NCBI GenBank assembly: GCA_039593775.1
Contig: JBCNOP010000003.1
Coordinates: forward strand, 19,521 to 83,520
Direction of reading: 5' to 3'
Length of the DNA: 64,000 bases
Source of the DNA: Pseudoduganella sp.
GTDB lineage: Bacteria; Pseudomonadota; Gammaproteobacteria; Burkholderiales; Burkholderiaceae_D
Of the stretch, positions 1-35,856 are shown in pieces. How positions within the stretch are numbered: the stretch's first letter is position 1; every line of letters starts with the position of its first letter. The translations under genes and the position numbers were made by a program. Below the pieces are notes generated by a model that worked only from the letters and a program-made list of their open reading frames with translations, did not search any database and was not told the origin of the DNA.

Positions 1-506
1 AGCAATAAAGCAGTAAATGCCAGCAGCCAGGCCCAGGAAAATCCCCGGCCAGCCAGCCATGACGCTAGGAAGCCCAACAGGCACATGCCCAGCACGTCGG
101 TCGCCCGGTCCACCACGAAGGCGGCAAGGCTGTGCGGTGCGCGCACGCCTTGTTGCAGCAACAGCGCAGTGCGGAAGGTCTCCCCCGATTTGCCTGGCGT
201 AGCGGTCAGTGCCAACCCAGAAAGATAGATAGCCAAGTGGTGCAAGCGCGGTACCCGGTAGCCGAAACAGCGCAGCACAGCCTCCCAACGCGCAAAGCGC
301 CAGAGGTACGCCGACGAAGCAAGGCCGGCGCCGCCAAGCAGAATGGCGGGACCCAAAGCCGCCAGCGCAGCGGCCGTGTCCTGCCAACCAAACCAGAAAA
401 TGGCCGCAAGGTATAACAGGACACCGGCACTGACGAACAGGACGATTGCCCGGATGATGCGCGGGTCGCCAAGGATGGACTGTATGCGCGCAGCAGTCCG
501 GCTCAT
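1..506 (-). CDS. Lysylphosphatidylglycerol-synthase TM (UPF0104/AglD2-like) flippase-like membrane protein; runs off the window edge
   Basis: Not in the ORF track. Manual translation from ATG 506 (ATGA overlap with gtrA stop) gives [41 protein letters not shown]...LWRFARWEAVL...LTATPGKSGETFR...VVDRATDVLG, with the RxxRW, TPGxxGExxR and (D/E)RxxD motifs of this family. Open to base 1. Confidence 0.8.
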   Translation of the reverse strand, partial: MSRTAARIQSILGDPRIIRAIVLFVSAGVLLYLAAIFWFGWQDTAAALAALGPAILLGGAGLASSAYLWRFARWEAVLRCFGYRVPRLHHLAIYLSGLALTATPGKSGETFRTALLLQQGVRAPHSLAAFVVDRATDVLGMCLLGFLASWLAGRGFSWAWLLAFTALL

Positions 507-892
507 CGGAAGGTCAGGAACTTATGGCCGAAATAGCTGGTCACTACCGGTACCAGTACACCAGCCAGGTGCGCCAACGCCTCGGCGTGCTGCACGATGC
601 CGAGCGACGGCAGCACCCAGCGCGCCAGCAGCAGGCTGATGGCCAGCGTCTGCAGCACGGCCAGCACGTTCACGCCGACAAACTTGCTGACCTGGGAGGC
701 CAGCGCTCCGTCCTGCGCCTTGAACACATGGCCGCGCATCAGGGTGAAAGCGACCAGCATGCCGACTAGATAGGCAAAGAACACCGCCGGTGCGTAATCG
801 AGGAAGGTGCTGAACACGAAGCGCGAGCCGAAGTTTGCGCCTGCGGCGATGCCGCCGGCGACCAGGAAACGCAGGAACTCTTTATTCAGCAT
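503..892 (-). CDS. gtrA: GtrA-family polyprenyl-phosphate-sugar flippase
   Basis: 129 aa, 4 TM; starts '[10 protein letters not shown]', has 'HVFK', ends '[11 protein letters not shown]'. Confidence 0.85.
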
Positions 893-2180
893 GGGCCGCC
901 ATCTTCGCCATATTGCGGCCGAAATCGATGCTCTCCGAGATGCCGCGGTCTTCCGGATAATAGTACGAGGTATCCGCCACCCACAGCCCCTTCACCGGCA
1001 ATGCCACCGGCGGCAGCTTGTCCAGGTAGCCCGGATCGCAAATCGGCTGCGCATAACGGTAACGGCTGGCACGCATGTCGAGGAAGTCTTCGTCGCGCAG
1101 GGCCGGGTTGATCTTCTTCAGGTAGCTGCGCACCTTGTCCAGGAAGACCTGGTCGGCATCGGCGAATTTCGGATGCTCGCCCGGCATGTAGAACGGCACA
1201 TAGGTGATGTGCTCGTCGAGCGGGCGCAGGTTCGAATACTCGACCAGGCCCGGGATGTCCATCTCGGGATCGTTGGTGTTGAGCCAGAAGTTTTCCGTCA
1301 CAGCCTTGCGCAGCTTGGCAATCACGCATACCACAGCGATGTTTTTCACAGCCTGGAACTTGCCCAGCACTTCAGGCGGCAGGTCCGGCATCACGCGCGG
1401 CACGTACGGCAGCGGGATGGTGCTGACCACCTTGTCGAAAGCCTCGAACTTGCCGCCGGCCTCGATGCCGCGCACCTGGCCCTGCTCCATCACGACCTTG
1501 CTGGCCGGCGTGGACAGGCGCACTTCGCCGCCGTGCTTGACGATGTCGTCGCGCATGGCGTTGAGCAGCGTCTCCGAGCCGCCATCGAGGTAGCCCAGCT
1601 TCTCTTCGAACAGGCTGGCGCGCGAAGTGCCGATGCGGCGGATGCGGCTCCAGATCCAGGCCGCCGACAGGTTGCTGCTGTAGTCGTAGAACTTGTAGTC
1701 GAACAGGCGGCGCCACAGCACTTCCCAGGCTTCCTCGCCGACCCAGCGGCGGATCCAGCCGGTCGCTTCAACATTGTCGAGCGGACGCCATTCTTCGCGC
1801 TTGCGCTTGGTGGACAGGAAGGCATGCAAGCCATAGCGGAACTTGGCGATCGGGCTCAGGCCGCGGAACTTCAGCAGCGCGAGCGGGTTGCCCCAGGGCT
1901 GCAGGCGGTTCTGGTACCAGTAGCCCATCTTGGTGGCGACCCAGTGCATCTTCGACTGCAGGCCCAGCTCGTCCAGCACCTGCAGGAAGCCGGTATCGGA
2001 GATGCAGTGGAAGTGGTAATAGCGCTCGATCGACAAGCCTGAAAAATCGAAAGCGGCTGCCATGCCGCCGACGCGGTCATCGGCTTCGAACACCACCGGG
2101 TGGTGGCCATCTCGTGCCAGTTGATACGCGACCGCAAGCCCCATCGGCCCGGCACCCAGGACAGCAATTCGTTGGCCCAT
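882..2180 (-). CDS. FAD-dependent oxidoreductase (amine oxidase/protoporphyrinogen oxidase-like fold) in a glycan locus
   Basis: GAGPMG dinucleotide-binding motif, '[10 protein letters not shown]', 'ERYYHF', C-terminal '[10 protein letters not shown]'. Confidence 0.8.
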
Positions 2181-2182
2181 AG

Positions 2183-3130
2183 TCAGAATTCCAGAATAAT
2201 CGAGTTGTAACGCGCGTCGTTGAACGTCGCATCAAGGGCTTTGTCGAACGGCGTGTAGGGAACGCCGAACTTGCCGGGCCAGTCGATCACTTCGAACTCG
2301 TCCTTGGCGCTCAGCGCAGTAAGTTGCTGGGTGGTGAATGGCGGTTTTTTATCAAACAGCGACCAGGTCCAGATCAACGCATAGAACAAGCCATAAGGGA
2401 TCTTGACGATAGGCGTCCTGGTGCCAGTGGTCTTCTTGATCATGCGGATGATGTCGATGTAGTCGATCTTTTCATGGCCTGAAATATTGAAAATGCCGCC
2501 CGCAATGCGCTGCTCGAAACAGCTGATGATAATGTCCGAAAAATCGCGCGCCCACAGCGGCTGGCGCATGTAGCGACCGTGCCCTGGTATCGGGAATACC
2601 GGTACCTTCTTCATAAAGCGCGACAGCCAGCCCAGGTGTTTCCGGTCGAACCAGCCAAACATCAAGGTCGGGCGCAAGATCGGGCACTCGATGCCGCTGG
2701 CAAGGACCACTTGTTCCTGCTCGATCTTGCTGCGCGTGTAAAAGTCGTCTGCGACCGAACATACGACCGACGAACTGATATGTACCAGGTAGGGCTGCTT
2801 CGGGCTCGCCTTGATCAAGTCAAGAATATGTTTGGTCGAATCGATGTTATTGCGCTGGAAGTCCCTGTAGTCCAGGCCACCTATCTGCGCTTGCAGCATC
2901 AGCACCACATCAGCGCCATCGAAATGGCGCATCCATTCGCCGGGTTCGGCCAGGTCGGCGTACACGCAAGTAATACCGGGCTGTGCCTTCTTCAAGATAT
3001 CGAGGTTGGCCTGATGCTTGTCGAGCACAACCAGATTAGTGTAGCCGCGGTCAATCAAGCGTGCCACCAGGTTTTGGCCCACCAGGCCAGCGCCACCAGG
3101 CAAAAGTATTTTTTGGTCGAGAGAACTCAT
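2183..3130 (-). CDS. NAD-dependent epimerase/dehydratase (extended SDR)
   Basis: GGAGLVG, 'HISSS', YTRSK (YxxxK). Start moved to ATG 3130 (MSSLDQK). Confidence 0.85.
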
Positions 3131-3170
3131 AAACAATCCTGTATAAAGATAATCACTTCGCGGCGACCGA

Positions 3171-4814
3171 TCAGTCGCTCTTGATGGCGACAGCCGACCA
3201 TTCGCCCCAGCCTTGCCCGGTGTCACTGATGCGCAGTGTGAACTCTTCCGGCAAGCGTTGATTTGCGAATTCCAGTGTCACCCAATCAGAGGCCTTGGGC
3301 AGTTGCGCGGAAAACTCGCGCTCATGGCCAACGACCTGCATCGTTTGTCCGTCGCGTCCTGGGCCCGAACGATACAAAATACTGCCGCCACGGCGCACTT
3401 TCAGCAGTACTTCGCCAGTGGCGGCGTCGCCACGCTCCGTATAGCTGCCCAGCACCCGGTATCCTTCAAGCGTTGATTTCGCAAAATCCGTGCCGTCCAT
3501 CGTGCTGCTTACCAGTTCTGCATGCCCTGCAGAGGGTCGTTGCGGGAGGGCCGTGTAAGCGAACAGCGGCGGCACAGTTTGCGCCACGCCATCAAACAAT
3601 GCGCGCCCGGTGAGCGCCCGGCAATTCTCGCCACTCAAGAGTAGTTCCCATGCCCGGTTACGGTTGCCATCGAAATGCACAGGCAGCGCATAATTCGAGA
3701 AGTACTGACAGCTCAGCAAGTGTTCGCGCCATTGCAAATTGTCATGGCTGCGCGACCAGACCGGCACGGCATTCGCTACTGCAACGGCCAACAAGGCGCC
3801 CATCAGGGCCCGTGCCGTGGTCCTGGTCAAGCCAGCGCCAAACTGGATCAAAACCCAGAACAGCAAGATGAACGGGAAGAAGAAGTAGCGTGGCCCGGCC
3901 CAGTGCGGATGCATAATTGCAGGATCGACACGCGCTACCGACAGGCCGATTGCCCCCAGCAGCAGGTACATCAGCACCCAGGCACTGACACGCACTCGAG
4001 ACCGGATCAGCCACATTGCCGTCAGCCCCGTTAAACCGACACCAACAATCCACAATCCTGGAATCGTACGAAGCAAATTACCAATCAAGAAATTGCCAAA
4101 GAATGTAGGGACAACATTCAGGAGCACAGACTTGATTGGCGGTACACTGCCCGCAGAGCCCGCAACCATGAAGTATACCTGCACTGCAGTGACCAGAGTC
4201 GCTACTACAGCAAGGACCAGTTCGACCCGCTGGCGACGATACATCGCGGCACGCAGCCACAGCACAGGCAGCACCATCACGATGACCGGCGAGGACAGCC
4301 CTGCGAGCAACAGGAACAGCAAGCGCCAACCCAATGCCGGCGTTTGCTCGTCCCATAGCGCCAGCAAGAACAACAAGATCGAGGCCCACCAAAAAGTGTA
4401 AAGCGGTAGCGCGAACACTTCCGGATCACATGGGATCACAAAGATCGACAGCGCGCACAGCGCCTTGGCCTGCAATTTGGTCGGCGACATCGCAATGGCA
4501 ACACCCACCAGAGCGATGAACAGCGCCGACAGCATTGTACTCACCATCGGGTAAGCGGCCGCCGACAAGGTCATCGACAGCATGCTGATCAATTTCGGCA
4601 CCGTGACGAGATAGCCATTGACTGGCACGATCAGCGATGACCAACCCTGTTCGACAAATGCCCGGATGATCTGCGTACCATCTTCGTCCCAGACCTGGGG
4701 AGACGTAAATTGCATGCTGCGGCGGCTTGCCAGCAGCAATACAAATACGAGCATCATGAGAATGCCACACTGCCAACGCGGCAAGCGCTCTCGCAAGGAA
4801 GAGAAATACATCAT
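3171..4814 (-). CDS. Polytopic membrane protein, putative GT-C glycosyltransferase with C-terminal periplasmic domain
   Basis: About 10-11 hydrophobic segments; acidic 'WDEDG' in the first external loop; 'GPRYFFFP'; soluble C-terminal domain; located inside the lipid-sugar donor operon. Confidence 0.6.
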   Translation of the reverse strand: MMYFSSLRERLPRWQCGILMMLVFVLLLASRRSMQFTSPQVWDEDGTQIIRAFVEQGWSSLIVPVNGYLVTVPKLISMLSMTLSAAAYPMVSTMLSALFIALVGVAIAMSPTKLQAKALCALSIFVIPCDPEVFALPLYTFWWASILLFLLALWDEQTPALGWRLLFLLLAGLSSPVIVMVLPVLWLRAAMYRRQRVELVLAVVATLVTAVQVYFMVAGSAGSVPPIKSVLLNVVPTFFGNFLIGNLLRTIPGLWIVGVGLTGLTAMWLIRSRVRVSAWVLMYLLLGAIGLSVARVDPAIMHPHWAGPRYFFFPFILLFWVLIQFGAGLTRTTARALMGALLAVAVANAVPVWSRSHDNLQWREHLLSCQYFSNYALPVHFDGNRNRAWELLLSGENCRALTGRALFDGVAQTVPPLFAYTALPQRPSAGHAELVSSTMDGTDFAKSTLEGYRVLGSYTERGDAATGEVLLKVRRGGSILYRSGPGRDGQTMQVVGHEREFSAQLPKASDWVTLEFANQRLPEEFTLRISDTGQGWGEWSAVAIKSD

Positions 4815-4878
4815 GAGTCAGTACGGCCTTTCAAATTGTTTAAAGAGTTTGCTCGCAAAGGTTGTTCAATTTCCCATA

Positions 4879-6588
4879 TCAAGTTGGCGTCTGGAGCTTC
4901 AACTGGCAAACCGGCCCGCCAGGTCCCTCTCCACGCAGCGACAGCTCCGTTCCCGCCGGTGTCGCCAACAAATAGCCTTGATAACCCGCCCGGCGCGCCG
5001 CAGGAGATATAGCTGCAGCGACGTCATCCCTCTGTTTGCCAGTCATCGCATAACCAAACTGTTTGCCATCAGCCCCCAAGATACGCACCGCTTGCGGCAC
5101 CGTGACGTTTGCAGGATCGTAGAGCCAGCCAATGACACGCAAGAAGCGGCTATCGCCCTCAATTACAACTGCAGTATCCAAGGCGCCTTGGCACGCAGGC
5201 AGCGCAACAGGCTCAAACACCGTGCCCATTTGTGCACGCACCCCGCGATAGGGAAACAGGCCAAAGACTGAGCGCCCCTTGTCGGCAGGCTGCTCGGCGA
5301 CCGCAATAACATCGGTGGTGGGGAATACATGGCCAATTTGTGCCTGGTCCTTGACGCGCATTTCAATCGCCAAGGCGGCAACGGCTCGCTCATACATCTC
5401 ATCTTCGTGCGATTGCAGCGCCTTCACCTGGTAAACCAGCATCAGCAAGGTCAGCACTGCCAAGCCCCCCCATGTCCAGCGGCGGCGCTGAGCTGGCAGC
5501 GCAAGCAGCGCTGGAGCATACAGGATCGCCAATGCCGCCCAGGCCATCAGGGCCGGCGTGGTATAGCGGTGGGACAAAGCCTGGTCCAGGCCAAAGAGCG
5601 CGCGCCCCCCCGCGGTGCCAAGTGCTGTGCCGACGATATAGGCGATGAAGGACAACAGCACCAGTTGCACGCTTGCGTGGCGCGACTGGCGCAATTGCAG
5701 CCAGGCGAACCTGGCTGAGCATGCCAAAAAGAACAGACCAGCAAGCTGGGCCATCACCTTGCCGAGCCCTCTTTCGCCCATCGCCAAGTTGAATGGCCCT
5801 CCGAGGTACATAAAGACGTAACGGAACACCCGACCTGGATGTTCACGCAGGGTCAGAGTCACGGAGCCATGCCCGCCAGGCGAAACAAATGCGTGGAAAT
5901 AGGCAAACACCACGACTGCAGCCAAGATCACCAGCACGCTGATGCGCCGCACGCCCTGACGCGTCAGGATGGCATATGCCGCCATGAGAGGCAGGGCCAG
6001 GATGCCATTTGCCATCGTGCCGATGCACAGGACACCAAGCAGGCAAGCCAGGGCGAACAGACCGGTCCCGCCTTGCACCGAGCGGTACAGTACGTACAAG
6101 GCCGTAAGTGGAAGCAACTGAGCCAGGATGAATTGGCTCTGGAAGCCCCACGTCAGGTTTTCATGCTGGCTCCAGAAAAACAGGCAGACAACGAGGAAAG
6201 CCGCCAACGCGTGCTTCTCGAGCGTGCGCTGTGACGTCGCCGTAGCTTCGCGCAGCATGCGGTAGAACAACACACTGCCAGCGGCCACCAACAGGTAATT
6301 CACGACAATCAGGAACCAACCAGTACCACTGAACCAGCTCAAGTCAGCCCAGAAAAACAGGCGCGAAAGTACAATCCGGTGCTCATTATGCTGCCGCCAC
6401 CACGCCTGCCAGCCGTTGCTTGCGACTTCGTCGAGAAATGGCAGGTAGCCGTCCCACATATCCCAGAATGGCACCACAGAGTAGCCGCGAACGCCCCCAA
6501 CGATCGCCAGCGCGACAAAAAGCAGCGCCAGGCTGGTGAGGCCATGGCGCAACAGGCGCTGCTGCGGCGCGGTGGTTGCGACGCTCAT
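4879..6588 (-). CDS. Polytopic membrane protein, putative GT-C glycosyltransferase with C-terminal periplasmic domain
   Basis: 'PFWDMWDGY...QHNEHRIV' first loop, 'ENLTWGFQSQF', 'SHRYTT', many TMs. Start ATG 6588 overlaps the SDR stop (ATGA). Confidence 0.65.
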   Translation of the reverse strand: MSVATTAPQQRLLRHGLTSLALLFVALAIVGGVRGYSVVPFWDMWDGYLPFLDEVASNGWQAWWRQHNEHRIVLSRLFFWADLSWFSGTGWFLIVVNYLLVAAGSVLFYRMLREATATSQRTLEKHALAAFLVVCLFFWSQHENLTWGFQSQFILAQLLPLTALYVLYRSVQGGTGLFALACLLGVLCIGTMANGILALPLMAAYAILTRQGVRRISVLVILAAVVVFAYFHAFVSPGGHGSVTLTLREHPGRVFRYVFMYLGGPFNLAMGERGLGKVMAQLAGLFFLACSARFAWLQLRQSRHASVQLVLLSFIAYIVGTALGTAGGRALFGLDQALSHRYTTPALMAWAALAILYAPALLALPAQRRRWTWGGLAVLTLLMLVYQVKALQSHEDEMYERAVAALAIEMRVKDQAQIGHVFPTTDVIAVAEQPADKGRSVFGLFPYRGVRAQMGTVFEPVALPACQGALDTAVVIEGDSRFLRVIGWLYDPANVTVPQAVRILGADGKQFGYAMTGKQRDDVAAAISPAARRAGYQGYLLATPAGTELSLRGEGPGGPVCQLKLQTPT

Positions 6589-7331
6589 ATGTCCATCCGG
6601 TTGAAAACGAAGCGCGGCAGGTTGGCAATGATCAGCATGATCAGCGCCCACTTGCCCGGCGTGTACAGCACCGGCTGGCCTTTGGCGGTCGCCGCCACGA
6701 TCTGGGCCGCGACGGACTCGACGCTGGCCATGCCGCGCTGTGGCATGTGCGCCGTCATCGGTGTCGCGGTCGGGCCCGGCTTGACCAGCACCACTTTGAC
6801 GGCGGTGCCGGCCAGGCGGTGCTGCAAGCCTTCCGCGTAGCGCGTGACCAGGCCCTTGGCGGCGCCGTAGACGTAATTGGATTTGCGGCCACGCTCGCCG
6901 GCCACCGAACCGATGATGGTCAGAGTGCCGCGGTTGACGCGCTGCATGTGGCCGGCAAACGCTTCGGCAAACAGGGCCGGCGAGACGCCGTTCACATCCA
7001 TGGCCTCGGCCGCCAGCGCCAGGTCGTCCTGGCAGGCTTGCTGGTCGGGCAGCGAACCGTGCGCCACCAGCACGATGTCCGGCACGCCGCCGGCAGCAAT
7101 GCCGTCCACCGTGGCGCGGATCTGCTGCGGATCGCTGAAGTTCGCTTCGATGACGGTGACCTTCGATTGCGGGCTGCGCACGCGCAGGTCGGCTGCCACG
7201 GCTTCGGTCTTTTCACGGTTGCGGCCCAGCAGGGTCAGGTCGAGCGCCTGGCCTGCCGCCCACAAACGGGCGCAGTGTTCCGCCATGGCGGAAGTCGCGC
7301 CGACGATTACGATTTTCTTGTTAGCAGACAC
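6585..7331 (-). CDS. DprE2-like SDR (polyprenylphosphoryl-2-keto-pentofuranose reductase)
   Basis: GATSAMA; 'GSVAGERGRKSNYVYGAAK' matches the DprE2-type signature; directly downstream of the DprE1 homolog. Confidence 0.85.
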   Translation of the reverse strand: MSANKKIVIVGATSAMAEHCARLWAAGQALDLTLLGRNREKTEAVAADLRVRSPQSKVTVIEANFSDPQQIRATVDGIAAGGVPDIVLVAHGSLPDQQACQDDLALAAEAMDVNGVSPALFAEAFAGHMQRVNRGTLTIIGSVAGERGRKSNYVYGAAKGLVTRYAEGLQHRLAGTAVKVVLVKPGPTATPMTAHMPQRGMASVESVAAQIVAATAKGQPVLYTPGKWALIMLIIANLPRFVFNRMDI

Positions 7332-8621
7332 TTATTTCCCCATCAAGCGACGCGACATCGCGGAACTGATGCCAGGGTCGCGGTATTGTAAAAATTCGGC
7401 AAGGCGCGGATAACCGGCCTCGAACAAGGCGCGCGGCATGCGCGCATCCTTGGCCATGTAGATGCGGCCGCCCGCTTCGGCAACGATGGCGTCGAGCCGT
7501 TCGAACAGGCGCAGCGTGCGTTCGCCGCGGTTCGGGAAGTCGAGCGCCAGCGTGACGCCAGGCTGCGGGAAGCTCAGCATGCCCAGCGCTTCGCGTTGGC
7601 CGAAAGTCTTCAGCACAGCCAGGAAGGAACCCTCGCCGCTGTCGCTGATCGCTGCCAGCATGGCCTGCACCGCAGCGCGGCCCACCGCGCGTGGCACCAC
7701 GCTCTGGTACTGGTAGAAGCCGGTGGGACCGTACATCCGGTTCCACTCGTGCAGGTTATCCAACGGATAGAAATAGCTCTCGTAATGCGCCACGCCCTTG
7801 CCGGCCCGGCTCTTCTGCAAGTTGTAATACGCAAAATTGAACGGCGCCAGCGACAGCTTGTTCACCAGCGACAGCGGCGGCACGAAAGGCATGGTGCGCG
7901 CGCGCGGCGCCGGCGCTTCCTTGCCCTCGATGGCGCAATGGTTGGCGCGCAGGAAGATGCCGCGCCCATTGCCGGACAGGCAGTCAATCCACGACACCGT
8001 ATGCTCCCAGTCCGCTTCGGAAGCATCGGACAGTGCGAAGAATTCGTCGAGATTAGTGTACGGCACGGTCTCGGTTTCCAGCCAGGGGCCGGCAACGCGG
8101 CGCAGCTGGATTTCAGCCGTGATAATCACGCCTGTCAGGCCCAGCCCGCCCACCGTGGCCGCAAACCATGCAGTTTCTTGTTCCGGGCCGCACAGGATGC
8201 GGCTGCCATCCGTGCGCAGCAATTCAATGCGGCGTACATGGTCGCCGAAGGAACCAACCGCATGATGGTTCTTGCCATGCACGTCGTTGGCGATGGCGCC
8301 GCCGACGGTGACCAGCTGGGTGCCCGGGGTCACCGGCAGCATCCAGCCGCGCGGAATTGCCAAGCGCTGGATATCGCGCAGCAGGACCCCGGCCTCGCAG
8401 CGCAGCAAGCCAGTTTCCTGGTCGAAGCTGATGAAGCGGTCAAGCCCGGTGGTACGCCACAGCACCCCTCCCGGATTGAGGCAGACATCGCCATAGCTGC
8501 GGCCCATGCCGTGCGCCAGGCCCGGCGCACCGGCCTGCAGCTGGCGCGCCACTTGCGCGCGCTCCGCCAGCGGACGCACCTCGTGCTCCCACTGCCCCAG
8601 CCGTCCCCAGGAAGAAACCAT
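7332..8621 (-). CDS. DprE1-like FAD-linked oxidase (polyprenylphosphoryl-ribose 2'-oxidase)
   Basis: 'GMGRSYGD', 'PVTPGTQLVTVGGAIANDVHGKNHH', 'SFLAVLKTFG', 'LSFP..G.TLALDFP', 'GGRIYMAKDAR'. Start ATG 8621 (TAATG overlap with UbiA stop). Confidence 0.9.
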   Translation of the reverse strand: MVSSWGRLGQWEHEVRPLAERAQVARQLQAGAPGLAHGMGRSYGDVCLNPGGVLWRTTGLDRFISFDQETGLLRCEAGVLLRDIQRLAIPRGWMLPVTPGTQLVTVGGAIANDVHGKNHHAVGSFGDHVRRIELLRTDGSRILCGPEQETAWFAATVGGLGLTGVIITAEIQLRRVAGPWLETETVPYTNLDEFFALSDASEADWEHTVSWIDCLSGNGRGIFLRANHCAIEGKEAPAPRARTMPFVPPLSLVNKLSLAPFNFAYYNLQKSRAGKGVAHYESYFYPLDNLHEWNRMYGPTGFYQYQSVVPRAVGRAAVQAMLAAISDSGEGSFLAVLKTFGQREALGMLSFPQPGVTLALDFPNRGERTLRLFERLDAIVAEAGGRIYMAKDARMPRALFEAGYPRLAEFLQYRDPGISSAMSRRLMGK

Positions 8622-10054
8622 TACCACGGCCACCCTGCCGCGCCCACTGCCAGGACTGCAGCGAAGCAAACGCCGGCGACCAGGCTGGCTTTGTCCTTGA
8701 CCGCAAAGACCAGTGGGTCATCATGCATATGGCCGCGATGCGCCTGCATCCACATCCAGCTGACCCAGAACAGCATAACCGGCACCGCGCCCCATACGAT
8801 TTCAGGCGTGCGGTACAACATCACCACCGCATCGCTATTCAGGTACAGCGCCAACACCACCAGCGCAGCGTAGCCCGCACTGACGCCCAGCATCTGGATC
8901 AGCGGGGCATCGGTGGTGTAGTAGCCGCGGCCATGCGCCTTCTTTTTGCCGTGCAAGACTTGCACCTGCAGTTCCGCATAGCGCTTGACAAAGGCCAGCG
9001 ACAGGAACAGGAACACAGAGAAGGCCAGCAGCCAGAACGACAACGGCATGCCCAGTGCGGCAGCGCCGGCAATGATGCGCAAGGTATACAGCAGCGCCAG
9101 CGTCACGCAATCGACCAGCATCAGCCGCTTGAGCAGCCACGAATAGGCGCAAGTCAGCAGGAAGTAGCCGGCCAGCCAGGCGCAGAAACTGCCGCCGACC
9201 TGCCAGGCCACGGCTGCACTGGCAAGCAGCAGCAACGGTGCGCACAGCACGCCCTGCCAGGCCGGCACCTGGCCGCTGGCGAAGGGGCGGTTGCGCTTGC
9301 GCGGGTGCTGGCGATCGCTCTCCAGGTCGAGCAAATCATTTGCGATATACACCGAGGAAGCGCACAGGCTGAAGGCAATGAACGCCAGCAGCAGCGGCAT
9401 CCAGTTGCCCGGGTCCATGAATTGATGGGCGGCGAACAGCGGCACGAACAGCAGCAGGTTCTTCAGCCATTGGTGCACGCGCAGCACGCGGCGCCAGGCG
9501 GTGAAGCCGGCGCCCGGGGCGGCGAAGGAACGCTCCACTTCGCAGCATTTGGCTGCACGCCGCGCCAACTCGGGCGGCGCGTTGACCACCACGGCGCGGC
9601 GCGCGCTGCGCCACACCGGCAGGTCGGCATGCGAGTTGCCGGCATAGTCGTAGCCGGCCTGGCCGAAGCGCTGCACCAGCGCGTCCGCCTTGTTCTTGCC
9701 TGCCAGGTTGACCTGGCCGTCGCTGGCCATGACTTCGTCGAACACGCCGAGGTGGTCGGCGATGGCGTTGGCGATCGACTGGTCGGAGGCGGTGCACAGG
9801 ATCAGCTTGCGGCCATTGCTGCGCTCCTGGCGCAGCCACTCCAGCAAGGCGGTGTTATACGGCAGCGAGGTCGCATCAAATTCGCCATGCTGCGCCAGGC
9901 GGCGCTTGAGCACGGCCTTGCCGCGCGCCAGCAGGAAAGGGATGCGCAGCACTTCGAATGGCTTGTCGCGCAAGGTGCGCAGCGCCGACTCGTGCAGCAT
10001 ATCGGTGTGGATCAACGTACCGTCGAGGTCGATGATGAGAGGCAGCATGCTCAT
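8621..10054 (-). CDS. HAD phosphatase / UbiA-family polyprenyl-phosphate phosphoribosyltransferase fusion
   Basis: N-terminal HAD motif 'IDLDGTL...CTAS...GNSHAD'. C-terminal 'RVHQWLKNLLLF', 'YIANDLLDLESDRQHPRKRNRPFASG' and 'HDDP' typical of DPPR-synthase-type UbiA proteins. Confidence 0.9.
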   Translation of the reverse strand: MSMLPLIIDLDGTLIHTDMLHESALRTLRDKPFEVLRIPFLLARGKAVLKRRLAQHGEFDATSLPYNTALLEWLRQERSNGRKLILCTASDQSIANAIADHLGVFDEVMASDGQVNLAGKNKADALVQRFGQAGYDYAGNSHADLPVWRSARRAVVVNAPPELARRAAKCCEVERSFAAPGAGFTAWRRVLRVHQWLKNLLLFVPLFAAHQFMDPGNWMPLLLAFIAFSLCASSVYIANDLLDLESDRQHPRKRNRPFASGQVPAWQGVLCAPLLLLASAAVAWQVGGSFCAWLAGYFLLTCAYSWLLKRLMLVDCVTLALLYTLRIIAGAAALGMPLSFWLLAFSVFLFLSLAFVKRYAELQVQVLHGKKKAHGRGYYTTDAPLIQMLGVSAGYAALVVLALYLNSDAVVMLYRTPEIVWGAVPVMLFWVSWMWMQAHRGHMHDDPLVFAVKDKASLVAGVCFAAVLAVGAAGWPW

Positions 10055-10153: not shown

Positions 10154-12310
10154 CTAACAAGATGGAACACGGGGCGGCCAAGCGTAGGAAAAATCTTCTC
10201 CGTCAAGCGTCAGGTTCGGGCTGTACGTTGGATCGTTCAATAAACCGTCGCCCCAGCGTGCTTTCATGTAATCGATCTCCCGCTTGAAACGGGCAATCTT
10301 TTCCGGCGAATCCTCTTCGCCTCGCGATGCTGATTCGTGATGGTTCATTTCCGCATATGGAGTCCAGACGTTGCGATAACCCGCGGCCTGCACCCGCAAA
10401 CAGAAGTCGACGTCGTTGAATGCCACTACGAGCTTTTCGTCGAGACCACCCATCTGTTCGAAGATCGAACGCCGCACCAGCAAGCAGGCTGCGGTCACGG
10501 CGCTGAACGACTGGTGCAACACCGCGCGCGCGAAATAGCCCGCCTGCCCTTTCGGCAGGTATTTATGGGAATGGCCGGCAATGCCGCCCACGCCGACGAC
10601 GCAACCGCCATGCTGCAGGCGGCCATCCGGATACCACAGGCGCGCGCCGACGCAGCCGACATCCTCACGCAACGCGAACGAGACCATCTCCTCCAGCCAG
10701 TCCGGCGTGAGGATCTCGATATCGTTATTCATAAGGCACAACAACTCGCCACGCGCCAGGCGGGCGGCATTATTGTTAAGCGCCGAATAGTTGAAGGGCC
10801 GGTCGTCCCGCACCACTTTGAAGCGCGGCGCCTGCAGCCGGTCGAACAAGGCCTGCGTGGCGGGTTCAACGCTGCCGTTGTCGACGATGATGACTTCATA
10901 ATTGGCATAGCTGGTCTTGGCCTCCAGGGAATTGAGGCACATTTCCAGCAGGTCCGCCCGGTCCTTGGTCGGGATAATGATGCTTACCAAGGGCTGCGGG
11001 GCCGGGCACGCAAAGCGCACGCGATTCAGCGCCGGCGCTTCCGGTGCCGGGCCTACTTGCGCGGCCAGCCCTTTTCTTGCCAGGTGTTCGGCCACGGCGC
11101 GACGCCCGGCGTCGGCCGCATAATTCTTTTCGCCAGCCGCAAGCGCGGTACTGCCCGCGATGGCGCGCCAGTGGTACAGCACCTGCGGCACATGGACCAC
11201 CTGCGTAGGCTCAAGCTGCTCAATGACGCGCAGCGCCAGGTCGTAATCCTGTGCACCCTCAAAGCCAGTGCGGAAGCCGCCCAGGCTGCGCAACAGGCTG
11301 GTGCGGTAAACGCCCAGGTGGCAAATCATGTTCTGCGCCAGCAGCAGTTCGTAATTCAGCTCGGACTTGAAATACGGGTCATAGCGGCGGTTGGTGGCGT
11401 CGACCTTGTCCTCGTCCGAGTAGATCAGGCCTGCCTGGGGATTGCGGTTGATGGCCTCCACGATCCAGTACAAGGCATGCTCAGTCAGCAAATCGTCGTG
11501 GTCAAACAACGCGACGAACTCGCCCTGCGCCAGCGCGAGGGCGGAATTGCTCGCCTGCGAAATGTGGCCGTTGGTTGCCCTAAAGTCGATTTTGATCCGG
11601 CTATCCTGGGCGGCAGCCGCCTCCAGCAGTGCACGCACTTGCGGGTTAGTTGAAGCGTCGTCCGCAATGCAAAGCTCCCAGTTGGGATATAACTGGCCGC
11701 GCACCGACTCGATCGCTTGCGACAGGAACTCCACTGGCGCGTTATACACTGGCATGAGTACCGAAATCAGCGGCTGCAATGCAAACCCAGCCATCTTGTT
11801 GCGCATTGCCGCATGCGACTCGTCGGTGGTAGTCGCATAGCGTTGCACCCAAGCCTGGTAATCGTTGCGGTCAAAGCTTGCGGAGCGCGTCTTGACGACC
11901 ATCATGCCGCGGCGGATACCAGCCAGGCCCTCGCGCCGGTATAAACCATATGCGATACTTGCAGTCCGGCCCCAACCGCCATAGCGCCGGCTGGCGCTCG
12001 ATGCAAACTGCCAGGCGCGGCGGAACTTCAGCACCAAGCCGCCAACGGCACGCCACGGCCGGGTCAGCCGCCAGCTTGTCGAGCTTCGCATGGCTTCGAC
12101 AGCCTGATTCAAGCCGGCGATCTGACGCTCGCGCTCGAGCAGGACGCCCAGCAAGTGATCGACGCCCCCTGGATAGTCGGTCGGGCGGCCCTCGGAGCGC
12201 CCTATCTTCACATAGTGCGCGTAGCCAGATGCAAACTCCTGTTTGCGCACCGCTTCAGCGACGTCAGGATTCACCTTCAAATAGACTGCTTCGTTAAATT
12301 CCGAATTCAT
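10154..12310 (-). CDS. Two-domain GT2 glycosyltransferase (O-antigen polymerising, probably a rhamnosyltransferase)
   Basis: Two GT-A domains ('ISVLMPVYN..DDAS..DHDD..QDYD'; 'VSIIIPTKD..DNGS..MNND..NDVD'). N-terminal 'SSTSWRLTRPWR' amphipathic motif. Start 12310 or 12319. Confidence 0.9.
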   Translation of the reverse strand: MNSEFNEAVYLKVNPDVAEAVRKQEFASGYAHYVKIGRSEGRPTDYPGGVDHLLGVLLERERQIAGLNQAVEAMRSSTSWRLTRPWRAVGGLVLKFRRAWQFASSASRRYGGWGRTASIAYGLYRREGLAGIRRGMMVVKTRSASFDRNDYQAWVQRYATTTDESHAAMRNKMAGFALQPLISVLMPVYNAPVEFLSQAIESVRGQLYPNWELCIADDASTNPQVRALLEAAAAQDSRIKIDFRATNGHISQASNSALALAQGEFVALFDHDDLLTEHALYWIVEAINRNPQAGLIYSDEDKVDATNRRYDPYFKSELNYELLLAQNMICHLGVYRTSLLRSLGGFRTGFEGAQDYDLALRVIEQLEPTQVVHVPQVLYHWRAIAGSTALAAGEKNYAADAGRRAVAEHLARKGLAAQVGPAPEAPALNRVRFACPAPQPLVSIIIPTKDRADLLEMCLNSLEAKTSYANYEVIIVDNGSVEPATQALFDRLQAPRFKVVRDDRPFNYSALNNNAARLARGELLCLMNNDIEILTPDWLEEMVSFALREDVGCVGARLWYPDGRLQHGGCVVGVGGIAGHSHKYLPKGQAGYFARAVLHQSFSAVTAACLLVRRSIFEQMGGLDEKLVVAFNDVDFCLRVQAAGYRNVWTPYAEMNHHESASRGEEDSPEKIARFKREIDYMKARWGDGLLNDPTYSPNLTLDGEDFSYAWPPRVPSC

Positions 12311-12566
12311 GAAAACCACTTAACCATCAACGATAACGGGGCTAAAGAGCTCATCCGCTCCAAGAGAGGTGAAAACAACACCATTGCATTCGCAATGCAC
12401 CAGACGCGGGCAGTTGCGAAGACGCAATCTAGTATTTTAACATCCAGCACGACTCGACCTCTACCCAGCCCGGCTAGCACCTAAGCGCCACCCTCTCCCA
12501 AATCTGCACGGCCGTGCTGACGTACTGGTAGTTTACGCTCAGGAATTTTTTGAACCGGACTCCTGA

Positions 12567-13849: not shown

Positions 13850-13857
13850 CTGTGAGC

Positions 13858-14988
13858 ATGACGGACGTAGATGCGGTCATCATTGGCGGCGGGTTTTATG
13901 GCGCAGCCATCGCCATCTACCTGGCCAAGGAGCGCGGCCTCAAGCGTGTGATCCTGCTCGAGCGGGAAGCGCGACTGCTGTGCCGGGCTTCGTATCACAA
14001 TCAGGCCCGTGTCCATAATGGATACCACTACCCGCGCAGCTTCACCACGGCTTTCCGCAGCCGCGTCAACCTGCCCCGTTTCGTTCGCGACTGGCCCGAG
14101 GCCGTCAAGCAGGATTTCACCAAGCTCTACGCCACTGCGCGGCGCAATTCAAAAGTGACAGCCAAGCAGTTCGAGCGCTTTTGCCACGAGATTGGCGCCA
14201 GGATCGAGCCGGCCGAAGCTGGCCTGCAAAAGTTGTTCGAACCGCGTTTGATCGAAGCGGTGTTCCTGGTGGAAGAATATGCGTTTGACTCCACTCGCCT
14301 TGCCGCCTGGGCACAAAAAGAGCTTCAGGAATCCGGCGTCGAAGTGCGCCTGTCGACCAGGGCAATGTCCGTCGCGCGCGCTGCGCAAGCGGGACTGCAG
14401 GTAACCACCTTGAATGAGAGCGGCGACTCGGATTCCTTGCGTTGCCGTTATCTGTTTAACTGCACCTATAGCGGGCTGAACCAACTGTCCGGCGAATTCC
14501 CTGGAACCCGGACCCGCTTGAAACACGAAATCACGGAGATGGCCCTGGTCAAGGCCCCGCCGGCATTGGAAGGACTTGGCGTGACCGTGATGGACGGCCC
14601 GTTCTTTTCCATGATGCCCTTCCCTGCCCGCGGCCTGCACACGCTTTCCCATGTGCGCTACACGCCTCATTTCAGCTGGCAGGACGAAGGCGGGGATGAC
14701 CCGTACAGGAAACTGCAGGAATATGCCCGCGACTCGCGCGTCGACCGCATGCTGCGCGATGTGGGCCGGTATATGCCATCGGTGCTCGACGCCAAATACG
14801 CCGACTCGCTGTTTGAGGTCAAAACGATTTTGCAAAAGAATGAGGGCGACGATGGCCGTCCAATCCTTTTCGAACAACACGCTGAACTGCCTGGCTGCTA
14901 TTCGGTGCTGGGCGGAAAGATCGACAATATTTACGACGTGCTTGAAAAACTCGAAACTGAAAAATTTGAGAACGTTGCGGAGCGATAA
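13858..14988 (+). CDS. FAD-dependent oxidoreductase (DAO/LhgO-like fold)
   Basis: GGGFYG, 'ASYHNQARVHNGYHYPRS', C-terminal 'GGKID'. Alternative GTG start at 13852. Confidence 0.8.
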   Translation: MTDVDAVIIGGGFYGAAIAIYLAKERGLKRVILLEREARLLCRASYHNQARVHNGYHYPRSFTTAFRSRVNLPRFVRDWPEAVKQDFTKLYATARRNSKVTAKQFERFCHEIGARIEPAEAGLQKLFEPRLIEAVFLVEEYAFDSTRLAAWAQKELQESGVEVRLSTRAMSVARAAQAGLQVTTLNESGDSDSLRCRYLFNCTYSGLNQLSGEFPGTRTRLKHEITEMALVKAPPALEGLGVTVMDGPFFSMMPFPARGLHTLSHVRYTPHFSWQDEGGDDPYRKLQEYARDSRVDRMLRDVGRYMPSVLDAKYADSLFEVKTILQKNEGDDGRPILFEQHAELPGCYSVLGGKIDNIYDVLEKLETEKFENVAER

Positions 14989-15774
14989 ATGAAAAAGAAC
15001 GCATTGATTGGCTATTCCGGTTTCGTCGGAACTACGCTGCTGAAGCAAGCATCCTTCGAGGCTTTGTACCGTTCGACCAATATCCAGGAAATCGACAACC
15101 AGCAATTCGATGTCGTCGTCTGTGCCGGCGCCCCTGCACAGAAATGGATCGCGAACGGCAATCCGGCAGAAGACAAAGCCAAGATCGAAGGGCTGATCAA
15201 GCACCTGAAGACCATTACCTGCGATACGTTTGTGCTGATCAGCACCGTTGACGTGTTCAAGAATCCGCAAGGGGTGGATGAAGATACTGCTGTTGACGAA
15301 GACGGGCTGCACGCCTATGGATTGCACCGCCGCCTGCTGGAGAAGTTTGTTGAGGAACACTTCCCCAAGCATTTGATCGTCCGCCTGCCTGGCCTGGTCG
15401 GCCCAGGCTTGAGAAAGAACGTTATTTTTGACTTCCTGAACAACAATAACCTGCACGCGATCGAGAGCCGTGGCGTGTTCCAGTTCTACCCGATGGTGAA
15501 CCTGTGGTTCGATATCCAGACCGCGCTGGAAAAAGGACTGAAGCTGGTACACCTGACCGCCGAGCCGGTCAGCGTGGCAGACGTTTCGCTGCAGGGCTTC
15601 GGGCGTTCCTTCACCCAGGAGCTGGCCAACGCGCCGGCCCGCTATGACATGCAGACACGTTATGCCGGTCAGTTCGGCACAGGCGGGCGCCATCAATACA
15701 GTGCGCGCGAAACGATTCTGGCCATCCGGGCTTATGCACAGTCCGAGCCGCGCAAGGCGGGGGATGCTGCATGA
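14989..15774 (+). CDS. Atypical NAD(P)-dependent SDR / sugar epimerase-reductase
   Basis: GYSGFVG, 'ISTVDV', YGLHR in place of YxxxK, 'VRLPGLVG'. Confidence 0.75.
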   Translation: MKKNALIGYSGFVGTTLLKQASFEALYRSTNIQEIDNQQFDVVVCAGAPAQKWIANGNPAEDKAKIEGLIKHLKTITCDTFVLISTVDVFKNPQGVDEDTAVDEDGLHAYGLHRRLLEKFVEEHFPKHLIVRLPGLVGPGLRKNVIFDFLNNNNLHAIESRGVFQFYPMVNLWFDIQTALEKGLKLVHLTAEPVSVADVSLQGFGRSFTQELANAPARYDMQTRYAGQFGTGGRHQYSARETILAIRAYAQSEPRKAGDAA

Positions 15775-16604
15775 GGCTCGCCATTTCCAATATTGCATGG
15801 GACGTCGTGGAAGACGAAGCCCTGGCATCGCTGCTGAAGAAATTCAGCATCGATGCCATTGATATCGCGCCCGGAAAGTATTTCCCGGAACCGGCCAAGG
15901 CAAGCGACGCCGATATCCACGCCGTCAAACAATGGTGGGCCGAGCGCGGCATCGAGATTACAGGAATGCAGGCGCTCCTGTTTGGCACCGTCGGCCTGAA
16001 TGTGTTCGGGCCGGCGGAAGTCCAGGATGCCCTGTTGGCGCACCTGGCCGCGGTTTGCCGCATCGCTTGCGGGCTGGGTGCTACGCGCCTGGTGTTCGGT
16101 TCGCCGAAAAATCGCGATCGCACCGGCTTGAGCGATGAACAGGCCTTGGCGGACGCGGTGGCATTCTTCCGGCGGCTCGGCGATATTGCCCGCGAACAGG
16201 GCGTAATCATCTGCCTGGAGCCGAATCCACGCTGCTATGGCGCCAATTTCATGACCACCAGCGCGGAAACGGCGCAGGTGGTCAGGAGCGTCGCCCATCC
16301 GGCTATCCGGATGCAGCTCGATACCGGTGCGCTGACTATCAACGGCGAGTCGGCTGCGACGGTGCTTGAAGACTGCGCGGAACTGATCGGCCATGTGCAC
16401 GTCAGCGAGCCGAACCTGGTCCCGATTGGCGACCTCGATACCGACCATGGCCGCCTGCACGAGGCGATGGCCAGGTTCATCCCCGCCCACGTCGCCTCGA
16501 TCGAAATGGTCGCCACCAAGGACGAGCCCCACCTTGCCGCCATCGAGCGCGCACTCACCCACGCTAACAATTTCTATCGACCCGTAGCAGGTACCTCAGC
16601 ATGA
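15771..16604 (+). CDS. Sugar phosphate isomerase/epimerase (xylose-isomerase-like TIM barrel)
   Basis: Metal-ligand pattern 'LEPN', 'LDTG', 'HVHVSE', 'SIEM'; 'VFGSPKNR'. Confidence 0.85.
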   Translation: MRLAISNIAWDVVEDEALASLLKKFSIDAIDIAPGKYFPEPAKASDADIHAVKQWWAERGIEITGMQALLFGTVGLNVFGPAEVQDALLAHLAAVCRIACGLGATRLVFGSPKNRDRTGLSDEQALADAVAFFRRLGDIAREQGVIICLEPNPRCYGANFMTTSAETAQVVRSVAHPAIRMQLDTGALTINGESAATVLEDCAELIGHVHVSEPNLVPIGDLDTDHGRLHEAMARFIPAHVASIEMVATKDEPHLAAIERALTHANNFYRPVAGTSA

Positions 16605-23219: not shown

Positions 23220-23231
23220 ATTCGTGTTTCG

Positions 23232-24596: not shown

Positions 24597-25413
24597 CGGC
24601 AAAACCCTTCCGCGTTTTCTGGAACCACGCAAAACCCAACCACGCAACGAACGCCGAAATTGCGGTCCAATAGCCCCACTGCGCCCAGTCCAGCTGCTTA
24701 CCCCAGATCATGACATTGCGGGTATCTTCCACGATGTAGGTCAGTGGGCTGTACAGCATGGCTTCACGCAGGTTTTCAGGCACAGCTGCCATCGGATAGA
24801 ACACTGGCGACAAGTACATCAGCACCATGACCACTACGCTGATGACCTGGCCAACGTCGCGCAGGTAGACGCCCAGCGAAGCAAGCAGCCACGCCAAGCC
24901 CAGCGTCAGCAGCATCAACGGAATAAAGATCAGGAACACCTGCAGGGCCGCCAAGCTCGGCACGGTGAAAAAGACCAGGAAAAAGAGCAGCCAGACAATC
25001 AGGCTCACCATCAGATGGAAGGCGGCAGAACCCAGCGTGACCACCGGCAGGATCTCCAGCGGGAAAATGACCTTCTTCACGTAGTTGGCATTGTTCAGGA
25101 TCAGGCCCGGCGCCCGGTTGAGCACTTCGCCGAACAGGTTGAACATCAACATGCCGGTAAACATGATCAGGGCAAACTCAACCTTGGAGTCCGAGCCGCC
25201 AGCCCAGCGTGCCTTGAATACGACACTGAACATGAAGGTATACACTGCGAGCATCAACAAGGGGTTGAAGAACGACCAGAGCAAACCCATGGTGGAGCCA
25301 CGGTAGCGGCCCACCACTTCACGCTTGATCAGGTCAAAGATGAGGCGGCGATTCTTGTATAGCGACGCCAGCAGCGCCAACGGCTGCGTCGATTGCGGCG
25401 CGTGCGGATTCAT
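24586..25413 (-). CDS. wzm: O-antigen ABC transporter permease
   Basis: '[21 protein letters not shown]', 'YVKKVIFP', 'YLRD', 'YLSPVFYP', 'GFADVL'. Start ATG 25413. Confidence 0.95.
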
Positions 25414-27840: not shown

Positions 27841-27852
27841 GCGGTTTTCCGT

Positions 27853-34337: not shown

Positions 34338-34362
34338 AGTCGATTCCAGTTCTTAGATGTGG

Positions 34363-35823: not shown

Positions 35824-35856
35824 GTGGTGTTTTTCCAGCATGGTTGAAAAGCCAAT

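Follow-up and report, generated by a model that had tools for sequence, protein, structure and literature searches.

Introduction

Pentofuranose side chains shape O-antigen serotypes. Their attachment in the periplasm has been described for Citrobacter youngae O1 and O2, where a set of three components decorates an O-antigen of the ABC-transporter type with alpha-pentofuranose side chains (Kelly et al., PNAS 2024; PMC11127046). The product of open reading frame (ORF) 15 is a PRP-PPPRS fusion, ORF14 is a small flippase, and ORF12 is a GT-C glycosyltransferase with a carbohydrate-binding module (CBM) and the founding member of GT136 (PMC11127046). Here we analyse a related locus, a run of eight genes in a 64,000-nucleotide stretch of DNA from Pseudoduganella sp. 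(contig JBCNOP010000003.1, positions 19,521 to 83,520; "the window" hereafter). The run encodes a UbiA fusion protein, homologues of DprE1 and DprE2, two large membrane proteins (Mem1 and Mem2), an extended short-chain dehydrogenase/reductase (SDR), a flavoprotein of the PRK07233 type and a GtrA protein. Our main subject is the extended SDR and the flavoprotein, which we call the pair.

Additional enzymes can change the sugar that is attached. A single SDR, ORF13, converts the ribofuranose (Ribf) donor into xylofuranose (Xylf), and homologues of DprE1 and DprE2 accompany glycans that contain arabinofuranose (Araf); the GT-C is promiscuous for its donor (PMC11127046). Transporters of the MATE family and of the SMR family are both accepted, and GtrA has been modelled as an SMR-fold protein (PMC11127046). 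The same paper also points to "more elaborate systems", in which several candidate epimerases and several GT-Cs surround a homologue of ORF15, in Xanthomonas citri CFBP 6533 and Bacillus sp. NP157 (SI Fig. S12), and says that their significance "warrants investigation" (PMC11127046).

We find that the pair is an add-on to this pathway that follows its own genomic rules: the SDR and the flavoprotein are obligately paired, they depend on DprE1 and DprE2, and they appear to be gained and lost as a unit. These rules are what is new here. The core is already known, as a first-pass annotation of the window had also held; the pathway type is described in PMC11127046, where loci with multiple epimerases and GT-Cs are mentioned too. 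On balance we lean towards reading the whole as an extracytoplasmic pentofuranosylation module in an ABC-transporter-dependent, rhamnose-type O-polysaccharide locus, with the pair tailoring the donor.

Results

Occurrence of the pair across genomes

About 130 related loci in total form the basis of our comparison. An alignment scan for PRP-UbiA, with one genome per species, returned at least 527 encoding stretches, of which the best 80 loci were taken with flanks of up to 10 kb (the best-80 set). For an unbiased sample of the class, PRP-UbiA scored over the cut-off in 49 of 400 genomes; 40 loci were fetched, 31 of them with full flanks. Samples anchored on the flavoprotein covered 151 genomes of the order and 401 of the phylum.

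Wherever one gene of the pair is present, so is the other: in the best-80 set this applies to 46 of 46 loci, in the unbiased set to six of six, and neither gene occurs alone. UbiA is flanked by at least 7 kb on either side in 51 loci of the best-80 set: 34 of these carry DprE1/E2 and the pair, 13 carry DprE1/E2 only and four carry neither. The corresponding numbers for the 31 full-flank loci of the unbiased sample are five, 14 and 12. The combination of a pair and UbiA without DprE1/E2 was found in 0 of the 51 and 0 of the 31 adequately flanked loci, and no SDR resembling that of the window was seen in UbiA loci without DprE.

With the flavoprotein as the anchor, nine of nine assessable orthologues (at least 46% identity) have UbiA, DprE1, DprE2 and the SDR within 10 kb; a tenth orthologue runs into a contig end. 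The first-pass annotation had linked the pair to UbiA, and the nine loci agree: the pair does not occur independently. Homologues at 25–34% identity (loci L005, L007 and L102) have no cassette around them. A divergent homologue in L008 (26% identity) still lies among homologues of UbiA, DprE1, DprE2 and the SDR.

The position of the pair is also fixed. Across Alpha-, Beta- and Gammaproteobacteria it lies between DprE2 (or a GT-C) and GtrA, with gaps of 2–11 nucleotides or overlaps, independently of the surrounding backbone genes. Annotated plasmids of Burkholderia stagnalis and Agrobacterium salinitolerans carry the bare six-gene cassette of UbiA, DprE1, DprE2, SDR, flavoprotein and GtrA. One GT-C family (cluster 14, 53–58% identity) occupies the slot behind DprE2 whether the pair is there, as in the Massilia locus L016, or missing, as in loci of Massilia (L021) and Herbaspirillum (L028). 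Judged by these gene orders, the pair seems to behave as a modular indel that close relatives gain or lose as a unit.

This fixed slot bears on the idea that the pair acts on a nucleotide sugar, or on another soluble precursor of the backbone, and is merely genetically linked to the pentose genes. The SDR does belong to the Pfam family of nucleotide-sugar epimerases and dehydratases, and distant paralogues of the flavoprotein lie beside genes for a DegT aminotransferase, an acetyltransferase and a GDP_Man_Dehyd-type SDR (L007) or beside two extended SDRs. Yet the pair keeps its tight place before GtrA in all three proteobacterial classes whatever the backbone genes are, the cassette contains no nucleotidyltransferase, and every orthologue examined sits in the cassette. 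We regard a soluble substrate as very improbable.

The same loci speak to a proposal of the first-pass annotation, in which two dedicated transferases each receive a different lipid-linked pentose from a single operon. DprE1/E2 would make lipid-linked Araf, the pair would independently convert lipid-linked Ribf to Xylf by inversion at C3, and each product would have a GT-C of its own. The window offers two redox pairs, two unrelated GT-Cs and two candidate flippases for such an arrangement. Xylf side chains formed with an added epimerase are known (PMC11127046), and GT-Cs of the Mem1 family are seen only in loci that carry the pair or on contigs too short to tell. Against this, the pair beside UbiA is never without DprE1/E2, either in 71 adequately flanked loci or in the flavoprotein-anchored ones (n = 9). 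In most loci that combine the two redox pairs there is just one GT-C-like protein: large polytopic proteins in the cassette or within 4 kb of it number exactly one in 26 of these 46 loci, two or more in 12, and none detected in eight. Cluster-14 GT-Cs serve loci with the pair and loci without it, and the known formation of Xylf takes one SDR only. This part of the first-pass annotation is not supported, and we consider two parallel donors quite unlikely. A stand-alone C3 epimerase (Ribf to Xylf) is disfavoured because it would be expected beside UbiA without DprE1/E2, where the pair is never found.

Instead, we favour one further-tailored donor that is made in series, because the pair depends on DprE1/E2, consists of obligate partners, is positioned before GtrA and mostly occurs with a single GT-C. 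The first-pass annotation had named a serial option as well, in which lyxofuranose or another doubly modified pentose would be made, and the gene contents fit that option better than the two-donor model.

The gene run and its core enzymes

The run is read on the minus strand from position 10054 to position 503. The ORF listing and the scans with Pfam and NCBIfam confirm the first-pass annotation on this point: all eight predicted genes are co-oriented, with the order and coordinates that it gave. Past 503 the run extends into a flippase-like gene of the LPG_synthase_TM/MprF kind, which leaves the window at its start. With this gene and the one directly upstream, the features are as follows.

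10154 to 12319, minus strand: dual GT2 glycosyltransferase of 721 residues, two PF00535 domains, directly upstream of the run
8621 to 10054, minus strand: fusion of HAD (PRP) and UbiA (PPPRS), NF006088 at 698 bits (cut-off 351), PF01040 and PF12710
7332 to 8669, minus strand: DprE1-like oxidase that binds flavin adenine dinucleotide (FAD), PF01565 (FAD_binding_4)
6585 to 7331, minus strand: DprE2-like classical SDR, PF00106
4879 to 6588 (longest ORF to 6651), minus strand: Mem1, GT-C family 1, 569 residues from Met22, assigned by fold, no Pfam match
3171 to 4814, minus strand: Mem2, GT-C family 2, 547 residues, assigned by fold, no Pfam match
2183 to 3130 (longest ORF to 3226), minus strand: extended SDR, 315 residues from Met33, PF01370
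882 to 2180, minus strand: PRK07233-type FAD oxidoreductase (the flavoprotein), 432 residues, NF005560 at 564 bits (cut-off 252), PF01593 and PF13450
503 to 892, minus strand: small membrane protein of the GtrA family, PF04138 (E 2e-14)
1 to 506, minus strand: LPG_synthase_TM protein similar to the flippase domain of MprF, 337 residues with the 5' part of the gene in the window, PF03706 and TIGR00374

The complete reading frame of the 337-residue MprF-like protein was obtained from the contig beyond the window start. Probable starts are Met22 at 6588 for Mem1 and Met33 at 3130 for the extended SDR. The genes for DprE1 and DprE2 abut, and if Mem1 starts at Met22, its gene and that for DprE2 overlap in the sequence ATGA. 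Two nucleotides separate the SDR gene from the flavoprotein gene, which overlaps GtrA by 11 nucleotides; GtrA in turn overlaps the MprF-like gene by 4. Identical gene order is found again in dozens of genomes. The arrangement is far beyond chance. The nearest relatives of the cassette proteins come from Massilia, Duganella and Pseudoduganella. Scanning for promoters and terminators gave counts not above those of shuffled controls.

Matches to known families and structures bear out the mycobacterial-type polyprenyl-phospho-pentofuranose core (UbiA, DprE1 and DprE2) that the first-pass annotation had recognised. The UbiA half of the fusion protein matches the decaprenyl-phosphate phosphoribosyltransferase DPPRS of Mycobacterium tuberculosis (8j8j, E 5e-29). 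The motifs DLDGT (HAD, DxDxT) and NDLxDxxxD (UbiA, NDxxDxxxD) are invariant in the PRP-UbiA alignment. The predicted reaction is the conversion of phosphoribosyl pyrophosphate (PRPP) and polyprenyl phosphate to polyprenyl-phosphate-ribofuranose.

The DprE1-like protein aligns over its full length (residues 19–430) to M. tuberculosis DprE1 (E 2.7e-78), and the equivalent of the catalytic Lys418 is conserved (the Lys of YMAKDAR aligns to K418). It is predicted to oxidise the C2 hydroxyl of the lipid-linked ribofuranose. The DprE2-like SDR, whose gene comes after the DprE1 homologue in nearly all related loci with DprE1, would then reduce the 2-keto intermediate with NADH to give arabinofuranose. 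The DprE1-like protein scores 361 bits with NF053785, under the actinobacterial equivalog cut-off of 500. Its partner scores 146 bits with NF053786 (cut-off 250), and its best model is the generic PRK07102 with 244 bits (cut-off 267). By the NCBI rule the two proteins are probably best described as homologues with the same predicted chemistry, not as equivalogs.

Two side observations concern DprE1. The homologue in the window (7332–8669) has Ala at the position aligned to Cys387 of M. tuberculosis DprE1, the residue that benzothiazinone drugs bind. Locus L110 (about 2800–8200) has PRP-UbiA and a DprE1 homologue, DprE2 is not detectable there, and a distant extended SDR (23% identity to that of the window) lies nearby; this SDR may be an alternative reductase partner for DprE1.

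GtrA is a candidate flippase for the lipid-linked sugar, and the MprF-like protein is a second candidate. The type of GtrA goes with the pair: GtrA cluster 5 occurs in 20 loci with the pair versus one without it. The MprF-like gene occurs in DprE loci both with and without GtrA.

Protein features of the pair

In the extended SDR, the glycine-rich motif GGAGxxG (GGAGLVG), an Asp at the end of beta2, SSS and YxxxK (YTRSK) are invariant in 25 orthologues. Hydropathy predicts no transmembrane (TM) segment in either protein of the pair. Both are probably cytoplasmic, and the SDR looks like an NAD-type enzyme. Its nearest solved structures are distant (WbmF-like 2pzj, E 2e-8; NDUFA9).

The flavoprotein has the fold of amine oxidases, protoporphyrinogen oxidase (PPO) and phytoene desaturase, and among solved structures it comes closest to PPO and phytoene desaturase, with E 1e-8 or weaker. 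The NF005560/PRK07233 match covers its full length; this family is that of an uncharacterised NAD(P)/FAD-dependent oxidoreductase, and a look-up in a protein atlas returned only generic "NAD(P)/FAD-dependent oxidoreductase" clusters. The family is large (889 representative clusters at E ≤ 1e-30). NF005560 also scores above its cut-off in the control genomes of Haloferax volcanii and Methanosarcina acetivorans, which gives, as a lead only, a possible link to archaeal isoprenoid-modifying homologues of phytoene desaturase. The flavoprotein was also considered as a UDP-galactopyranose mutase, a reading that we rejected after the Pfam scan gave no match to the GLF domain at E ≤ 0.01. A mutase-like, redox-neutral reaction is possible.

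Among the cassette proteins the flavoprotein is the most conserved, with 76–81% identity in loci of Massilia, Pseudomonas and methanotrophs, where UbiA has 49–70%. Compared with the window, the Pseudomonas loci have 80% identity for the flavoprotein, 71–73% for the SDR, 49–51% for UbiA, 45% for DprE1 and 42% for DprE2.

These identities help to judge whether the pair is a second C2 epimerase, redundant or condition-specific, with another electron acceptor or working in the reverse direction. The formal logic would be that of DprE1/E2, a flavin oxidase with an NAD(P)H reductase. A locus with UbiA and GT-C genes (L145) has a paralogue of the flavoprotein together with DUF362 and no DprE1/E2, which hints that the flavoprotein family can stand in for DprE1 elsewhere. 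Orthologues of such an enzyme should sometimes occur without DprE1/E2; none of those examined did. Moreover, a pair that is up to 81% conserved beside fast-evolving DprE proteins (42–45% in the Pseudomonas loci) argues for a distinct and constrained function. A spare C2 epimerase is the alternative to which we give the least credence.

Because the superfamily of the flavoprotein and the best matches of the SDR are lipid-related, a role on the polyprenyl chain also has to be considered. The pair would saturate, desaturate, isomerise or hydrate an isoprene unit and so provide a dedicated pool of carrier for the donors of the GT-Cs. PPO, phytoene desaturase and HpnE-type proteins, the nearest characterised relatives of the flavoprotein, act on isoprenoids; the weak best matches of the SDR include the lipid-associated SDRs HpnA, OleD, 3beta-HSD and NDUFA9; and paralogues of the flavoprotein accompany polyprenyl-phosphate-sugar synthases of the GT2 and UbiA kinds, which are unrelated to each other but have the lipid in common. 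Modification of the carrier gives no reason for the strict dependence on DprE1/E2 or for the absence of the pair from UbiA loci of the Ribf type, and the family similarities are all remote (E 1e-8 to 1e-17), as are all likenesses of the two proteins to characterised enzymes. It is the least improbable of the alternatives that we weigh, and still an unlikely one.

Distant paralogues of the flavoprotein

Paralogues of the flavoprotein at 25–38% identity lie beside, or are fused to, UbiA or polyprenyl-phosphate-sugar synthases similar to ArnC, GtrB and PpgS. They also adjoin ArnC/PgfS-like synthases, GtrA, and GT-C genes of the PMT, PMT_2 and YfhO kinds. Fusions within the family join the flavoprotein to an ArnC/PpgS-like GT2 (P0491) or to S-adenosylmethionine-dependent methyltransferases (P0373, P0386 and P0427). 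This trend, which is real without being universal, agrees with a role on polyprenyl-phosphate-linked sugars and equally with recognition of the lipid.

Two of these settings are worth describing in their own right. Locus L005 (7628–13011), from the same family as the organism of the window, has an extended SDR, an ArnC-like GT2, GtrA, a paralogue of the flavoprotein (30% identity) and a 647-residue membrane protein with DUF7024. This is a Gtr-type module with an SDR and a flavoprotein, and it has no UbiA or DprE genes. The metagenome contigs L145 and L146 (94–14266) encode UbiA, DUF362, a PMT-type GT-C of 1611 residues, DUF362 again, a flavoprotein (34% identity) and two PMT_2 proteins. They might be a pentofuranose-like system without DprE1/E2, in which the flavoprotein and DUF362 replace these enzymes.

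Two membrane proteins with a GT-C fold

Neither Mem1 nor Mem2 matches any model in Pfam or NCBIfam, and profile searches of the PDB sequences gave nothing useful. Since sequence profiles are uninformative, both proteins were recognised by fold comparison only. Mem1 and Mem2 were considered as paralogues of each other, which was ruled out (BLASTP E about 1, hhalign probability 1%). The Mem1 family has 915 matches at E ≤ 0.001 and the Mem2 family has 136; the named members among those listed are all "hypothetical".

AlphaFold2 models built from the family alignments reach a predicted local distance difference test (pLDDT) score of 88.8 for Mem1 and 92.3 for Mem2. The top 19 VIA matches of the Mem1 model are all GT-C or GT-C-like proteins, led by AglB (Z 15.8 over 324 residues), AftB (14.4) and ArnT (13.8); PglB, AftA and EmbA are also among the VIA matches. 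For the Mem2 model, the top Foldseek matches are the mycobacterial arabinosyltransferases EmbC and EmbB (E 5e-7), and GT-C or GT-C-like proteins again fill the first 19 places among the VIA matches, with STT3 at Z 17.2 and AftA at 15.3. Fold comparison of both predicted structures confirms the GT-C fold that the first-pass annotation had predicted for the two membrane proteins.

The layout of Mem1 is an N-terminal polytopic domain followed by a C-terminal domain of beta-strands. In Mem2 the C-terminal 120 or so residues (about 427–545) form a CBM-like beta-sandwich, to which CBM35/36 and the C-terminal domain of EmbC match at Z 5–7. An invariant acidic residue follows just past TM1 in both families, Asp43 in Mem1 (PFWDMWDGY) and Glu44 in Mem2 (VWDEDG). 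The two GT-Cs of the window probably serve two acceptor positions or linkages rather than two donors.

Just before the window start lies a gene for a polytopic membrane protein of 599 residues (L094:16971–18770, plus strand), which has no Pfam match and is convergent to the end of the operon. It gave no profile match to the Mem1 family. This protein, which is outside the window, could be a further GT-C-like enzyme.

The surrounding polysaccharide locus

The wider locus contains several GT2 genes, a fusion of Methyltransf_23 and GT2, Wzt with a Wzt_C module, Wzm, and genes similar to rmlBDAC; WaaL-type (Wzy_C) genes are present elsewhere in the same genome. Because of the Wzm, Wzt_C, rml and GT2 context and these WaaL-type genes, "O-antigen-type locus of a Gram-negative bacterium" is a fair description. 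By its gene content we read it as an ABC-transporter-type (Wzm/Wzt), rhamnose-type O-polysaccharide locus.

The dual GT2 directly upstream of the run (10154–12319) probably serves synthesis of the polysaccharide backbone rather than the pentose module. Its homologues, at 56–67% identity, adjoin the cassette in loci L019, L027 and L034.

At 20109–25770 on the minus strand of the window, the fusion of Methyltransf_23 and GT2 (1036 residues) lies beside Wzt, with its carbohydrate-binding Wzt_C module, and Wzm. Chain-terminator-coupled ABC export typically has such a layout, and the rmlBDAC-like genes follow at 26414–29786. Three genes on the plus strand lie between the GT2 genes: a DAO-type FAD oxidoreductase (13852–14988), a 261-residue protein without a family (14989–15774) and a xylose-isomerase-like TIM-barrel protein (15771–16604). 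This trio (13852–16604) is a possible further sugar-modifying set. Just beyond the polysaccharide locus, at 32940–35841 on the minus strand, are two tandem genes of the alkaline-phosphatase family (465 and 492 residues).

Discussion

The pathway that we propose starts with the PRP(HAD)-UbiA fusion, which would turn PRPP into polyprenyl-phosphate-beta-D-ribofuranose. The DprE1-like and DprE2-like enzymes would epimerise this sugar at C2 to give polyprenyl-phosphate-arabinofuranose; for these two steps the homology is strong. The SDR and the flavoprotein, working as one unit, would act on the same lipid-linked pentose after or together with DprE1/E2 and yield a further-tailored donor, as comparative genomics suggests. 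GtrA, the MprF-like protein or both may flip this donor. Finally, in the periplasm, the two unrelated GT-Cs would use this donor to decorate the polysaccharide, probably at two acceptor sites or in two linkages. That the core is right, from polyprenyl-phosphate-Ribf synthesis through C2 epimerisation and flipping to transfer by GT-C, we hold with confidence. That the pair tailors the sugar in series is a more tentative reading of the genomic comparisons.

In chemical terms, it would be most economical for the pair to oxidise and then reduce the sugar a second time and so invert the configuration at another carbon. If that carbon is C3, a lyxo-configured furanose would result; if it is C4, via a C5 aldehyde, the product would be an L-pentofuranose. 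Alternatively, the product may be a deoxy, keto or (C-)branched sugar. A bolder version of serial tailoring, which we put forward as speculative and doubtful, is that the pair is a previously unrecognised two-enzyme step after DprE1/E2 and that the displayed pentofuranose is not Ribf, Araf or Xylf (it could be D-lyxofuranose, for example). PRK07233-like flavoproteins would then generally tailor monosaccharides linked to polyprenyl phosphate, in both UbiA-based and GtrB-based systems.

Several points weigh against tailoring in series. ORF13 of C. youngae performs C3 epimerisation as a single SDR, so that two enzymes are not required (PMC11127046). Lyxofuranose is absent from all solved glycan structures (PMC11127046), although the cassette is widespread. 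Relatives of the flavoprotein (PPO, phytoene desaturase and amine oxidases) seem to act mostly on C–C or C–N bonds of isoprenoids or amines, not on sugar hydroxyls, and the weak best family matches of the SDR (HpnA, OleD) are related to lipids. Some distant paralogues of the flavoprotein have contexts that resemble nucleotide-sugar loci (L007, P0455), and others are uninformative. The homologues of DprE1 and DprE2 both score under the NCBIfam equivalog cut-offs. The co-occurrence counts, such as 46 of 46 loci with both genes of the pair, come from related genomes and are non-independent. Our literature search on the pair, on lyxofuranose and on follow-ups of GT136 found no paper that explains the pair.

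The add-on is not rare: a sizeable minority of PRP-UbiA loci carry it (5 of 31 in the unbiased sample). The pathway of DprE1 and DprE2 is a major drug target in tuberculosis. If the pair makes a new lipid-linked sugar, then a pentose would be added to the known repertoire of bacterial glycans, the "elaborate" loci that the 2024 paper did not resolve would be explained, and a large uncharacterised family of flavoproteins would gain a function.

Comparison with known systems

Known systems of several types resemble the locus of the window. One is that of C. youngae. Both have an N-terminal HAD phosphatase fused to a UbiA-type PPPRS, with the same domain order as in ORF15. Both have a gene for a small flippase (here a candidate one), a GT-C with a C-terminal carbohydrate-binding domain (here Mem2) and a Wzm/Wzt locus. 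Auxiliary cytoplasmic epimerases, predicted ones here, set the identity of the pentose in both, and the epimerase is an add-on that can be gained or lost: the indel of the pair parallels the way in which orf13 is present or absent between C. youngae O2 and O1. The differences lie in the flippase, the transferases and the redox enzymes. C. youngae uses an antiparallel ArnEF/EmrE-like transporter ("MATE-family" in the paper), whereas the candidates here are GtrA and the MprF-like protein. Here there are two GT-Cs, from families without a Pfam model. DprE1/E2 are present here, and the SDR never comes without its partner, a PRK07233 flavoprotein that the characterised system lacks. The SDR has the extended-SDR motifs of the ORF13 type (the glycine-rich NAD motif and YxxxK), yet it is never found without the flavoprotein or DprE1/E2, unlike the single-SDR ORF13.

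Among the published "elaborate" examples, that of Xanthomonas can be compared more directly. The cassette of UbiA, DprE1, DprE2, SDR, flavoprotein and GtrA recurs in L070, a locus of Xanthomonas albilineans. Hence, the X. citri CFBP 6533 example is probably of this cassette type as well.

With the mycobacterial pathway to decaprenylphosphoryl arabinose (Rv3806c UbiA, DprE1/DprE2 and the GtrA-like Rv3789) the locus shares a UbiA PRPP transferase, DprE1, a DprE2-type SDR and a GtrA protein. Like the Emb and Aft proteins, the transferases have GT-C folds, and one of them (Mem2) has a CBM-like C-terminal domain. Mycobacteria have a separate PAP2-type phosphatase (Rv3807c), in contrast to the fused HAD domain here. 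Their acceptors are arabinogalactan and lipoarabinomannan, whereas the acceptor here is probably an O-polysaccharide. The SDR/flavoprotein pair is extra here.

Finally, the locus has the logic of Gtr-type O-antigen glucosylation (the flippase GtrA, the polyprenyl-phosphate-hexose synthase GtrB and the GT-C GtrC) and of sugar transfer by ArnC/ArnT: a monosaccharide is loaded onto a lipid, flipped, and used as donor by a GT-C in the periplasm. Unlike the Gtr-type donor, which is made from a UDP-sugar via GT2, the donor here would come from PRPP via UbiA.

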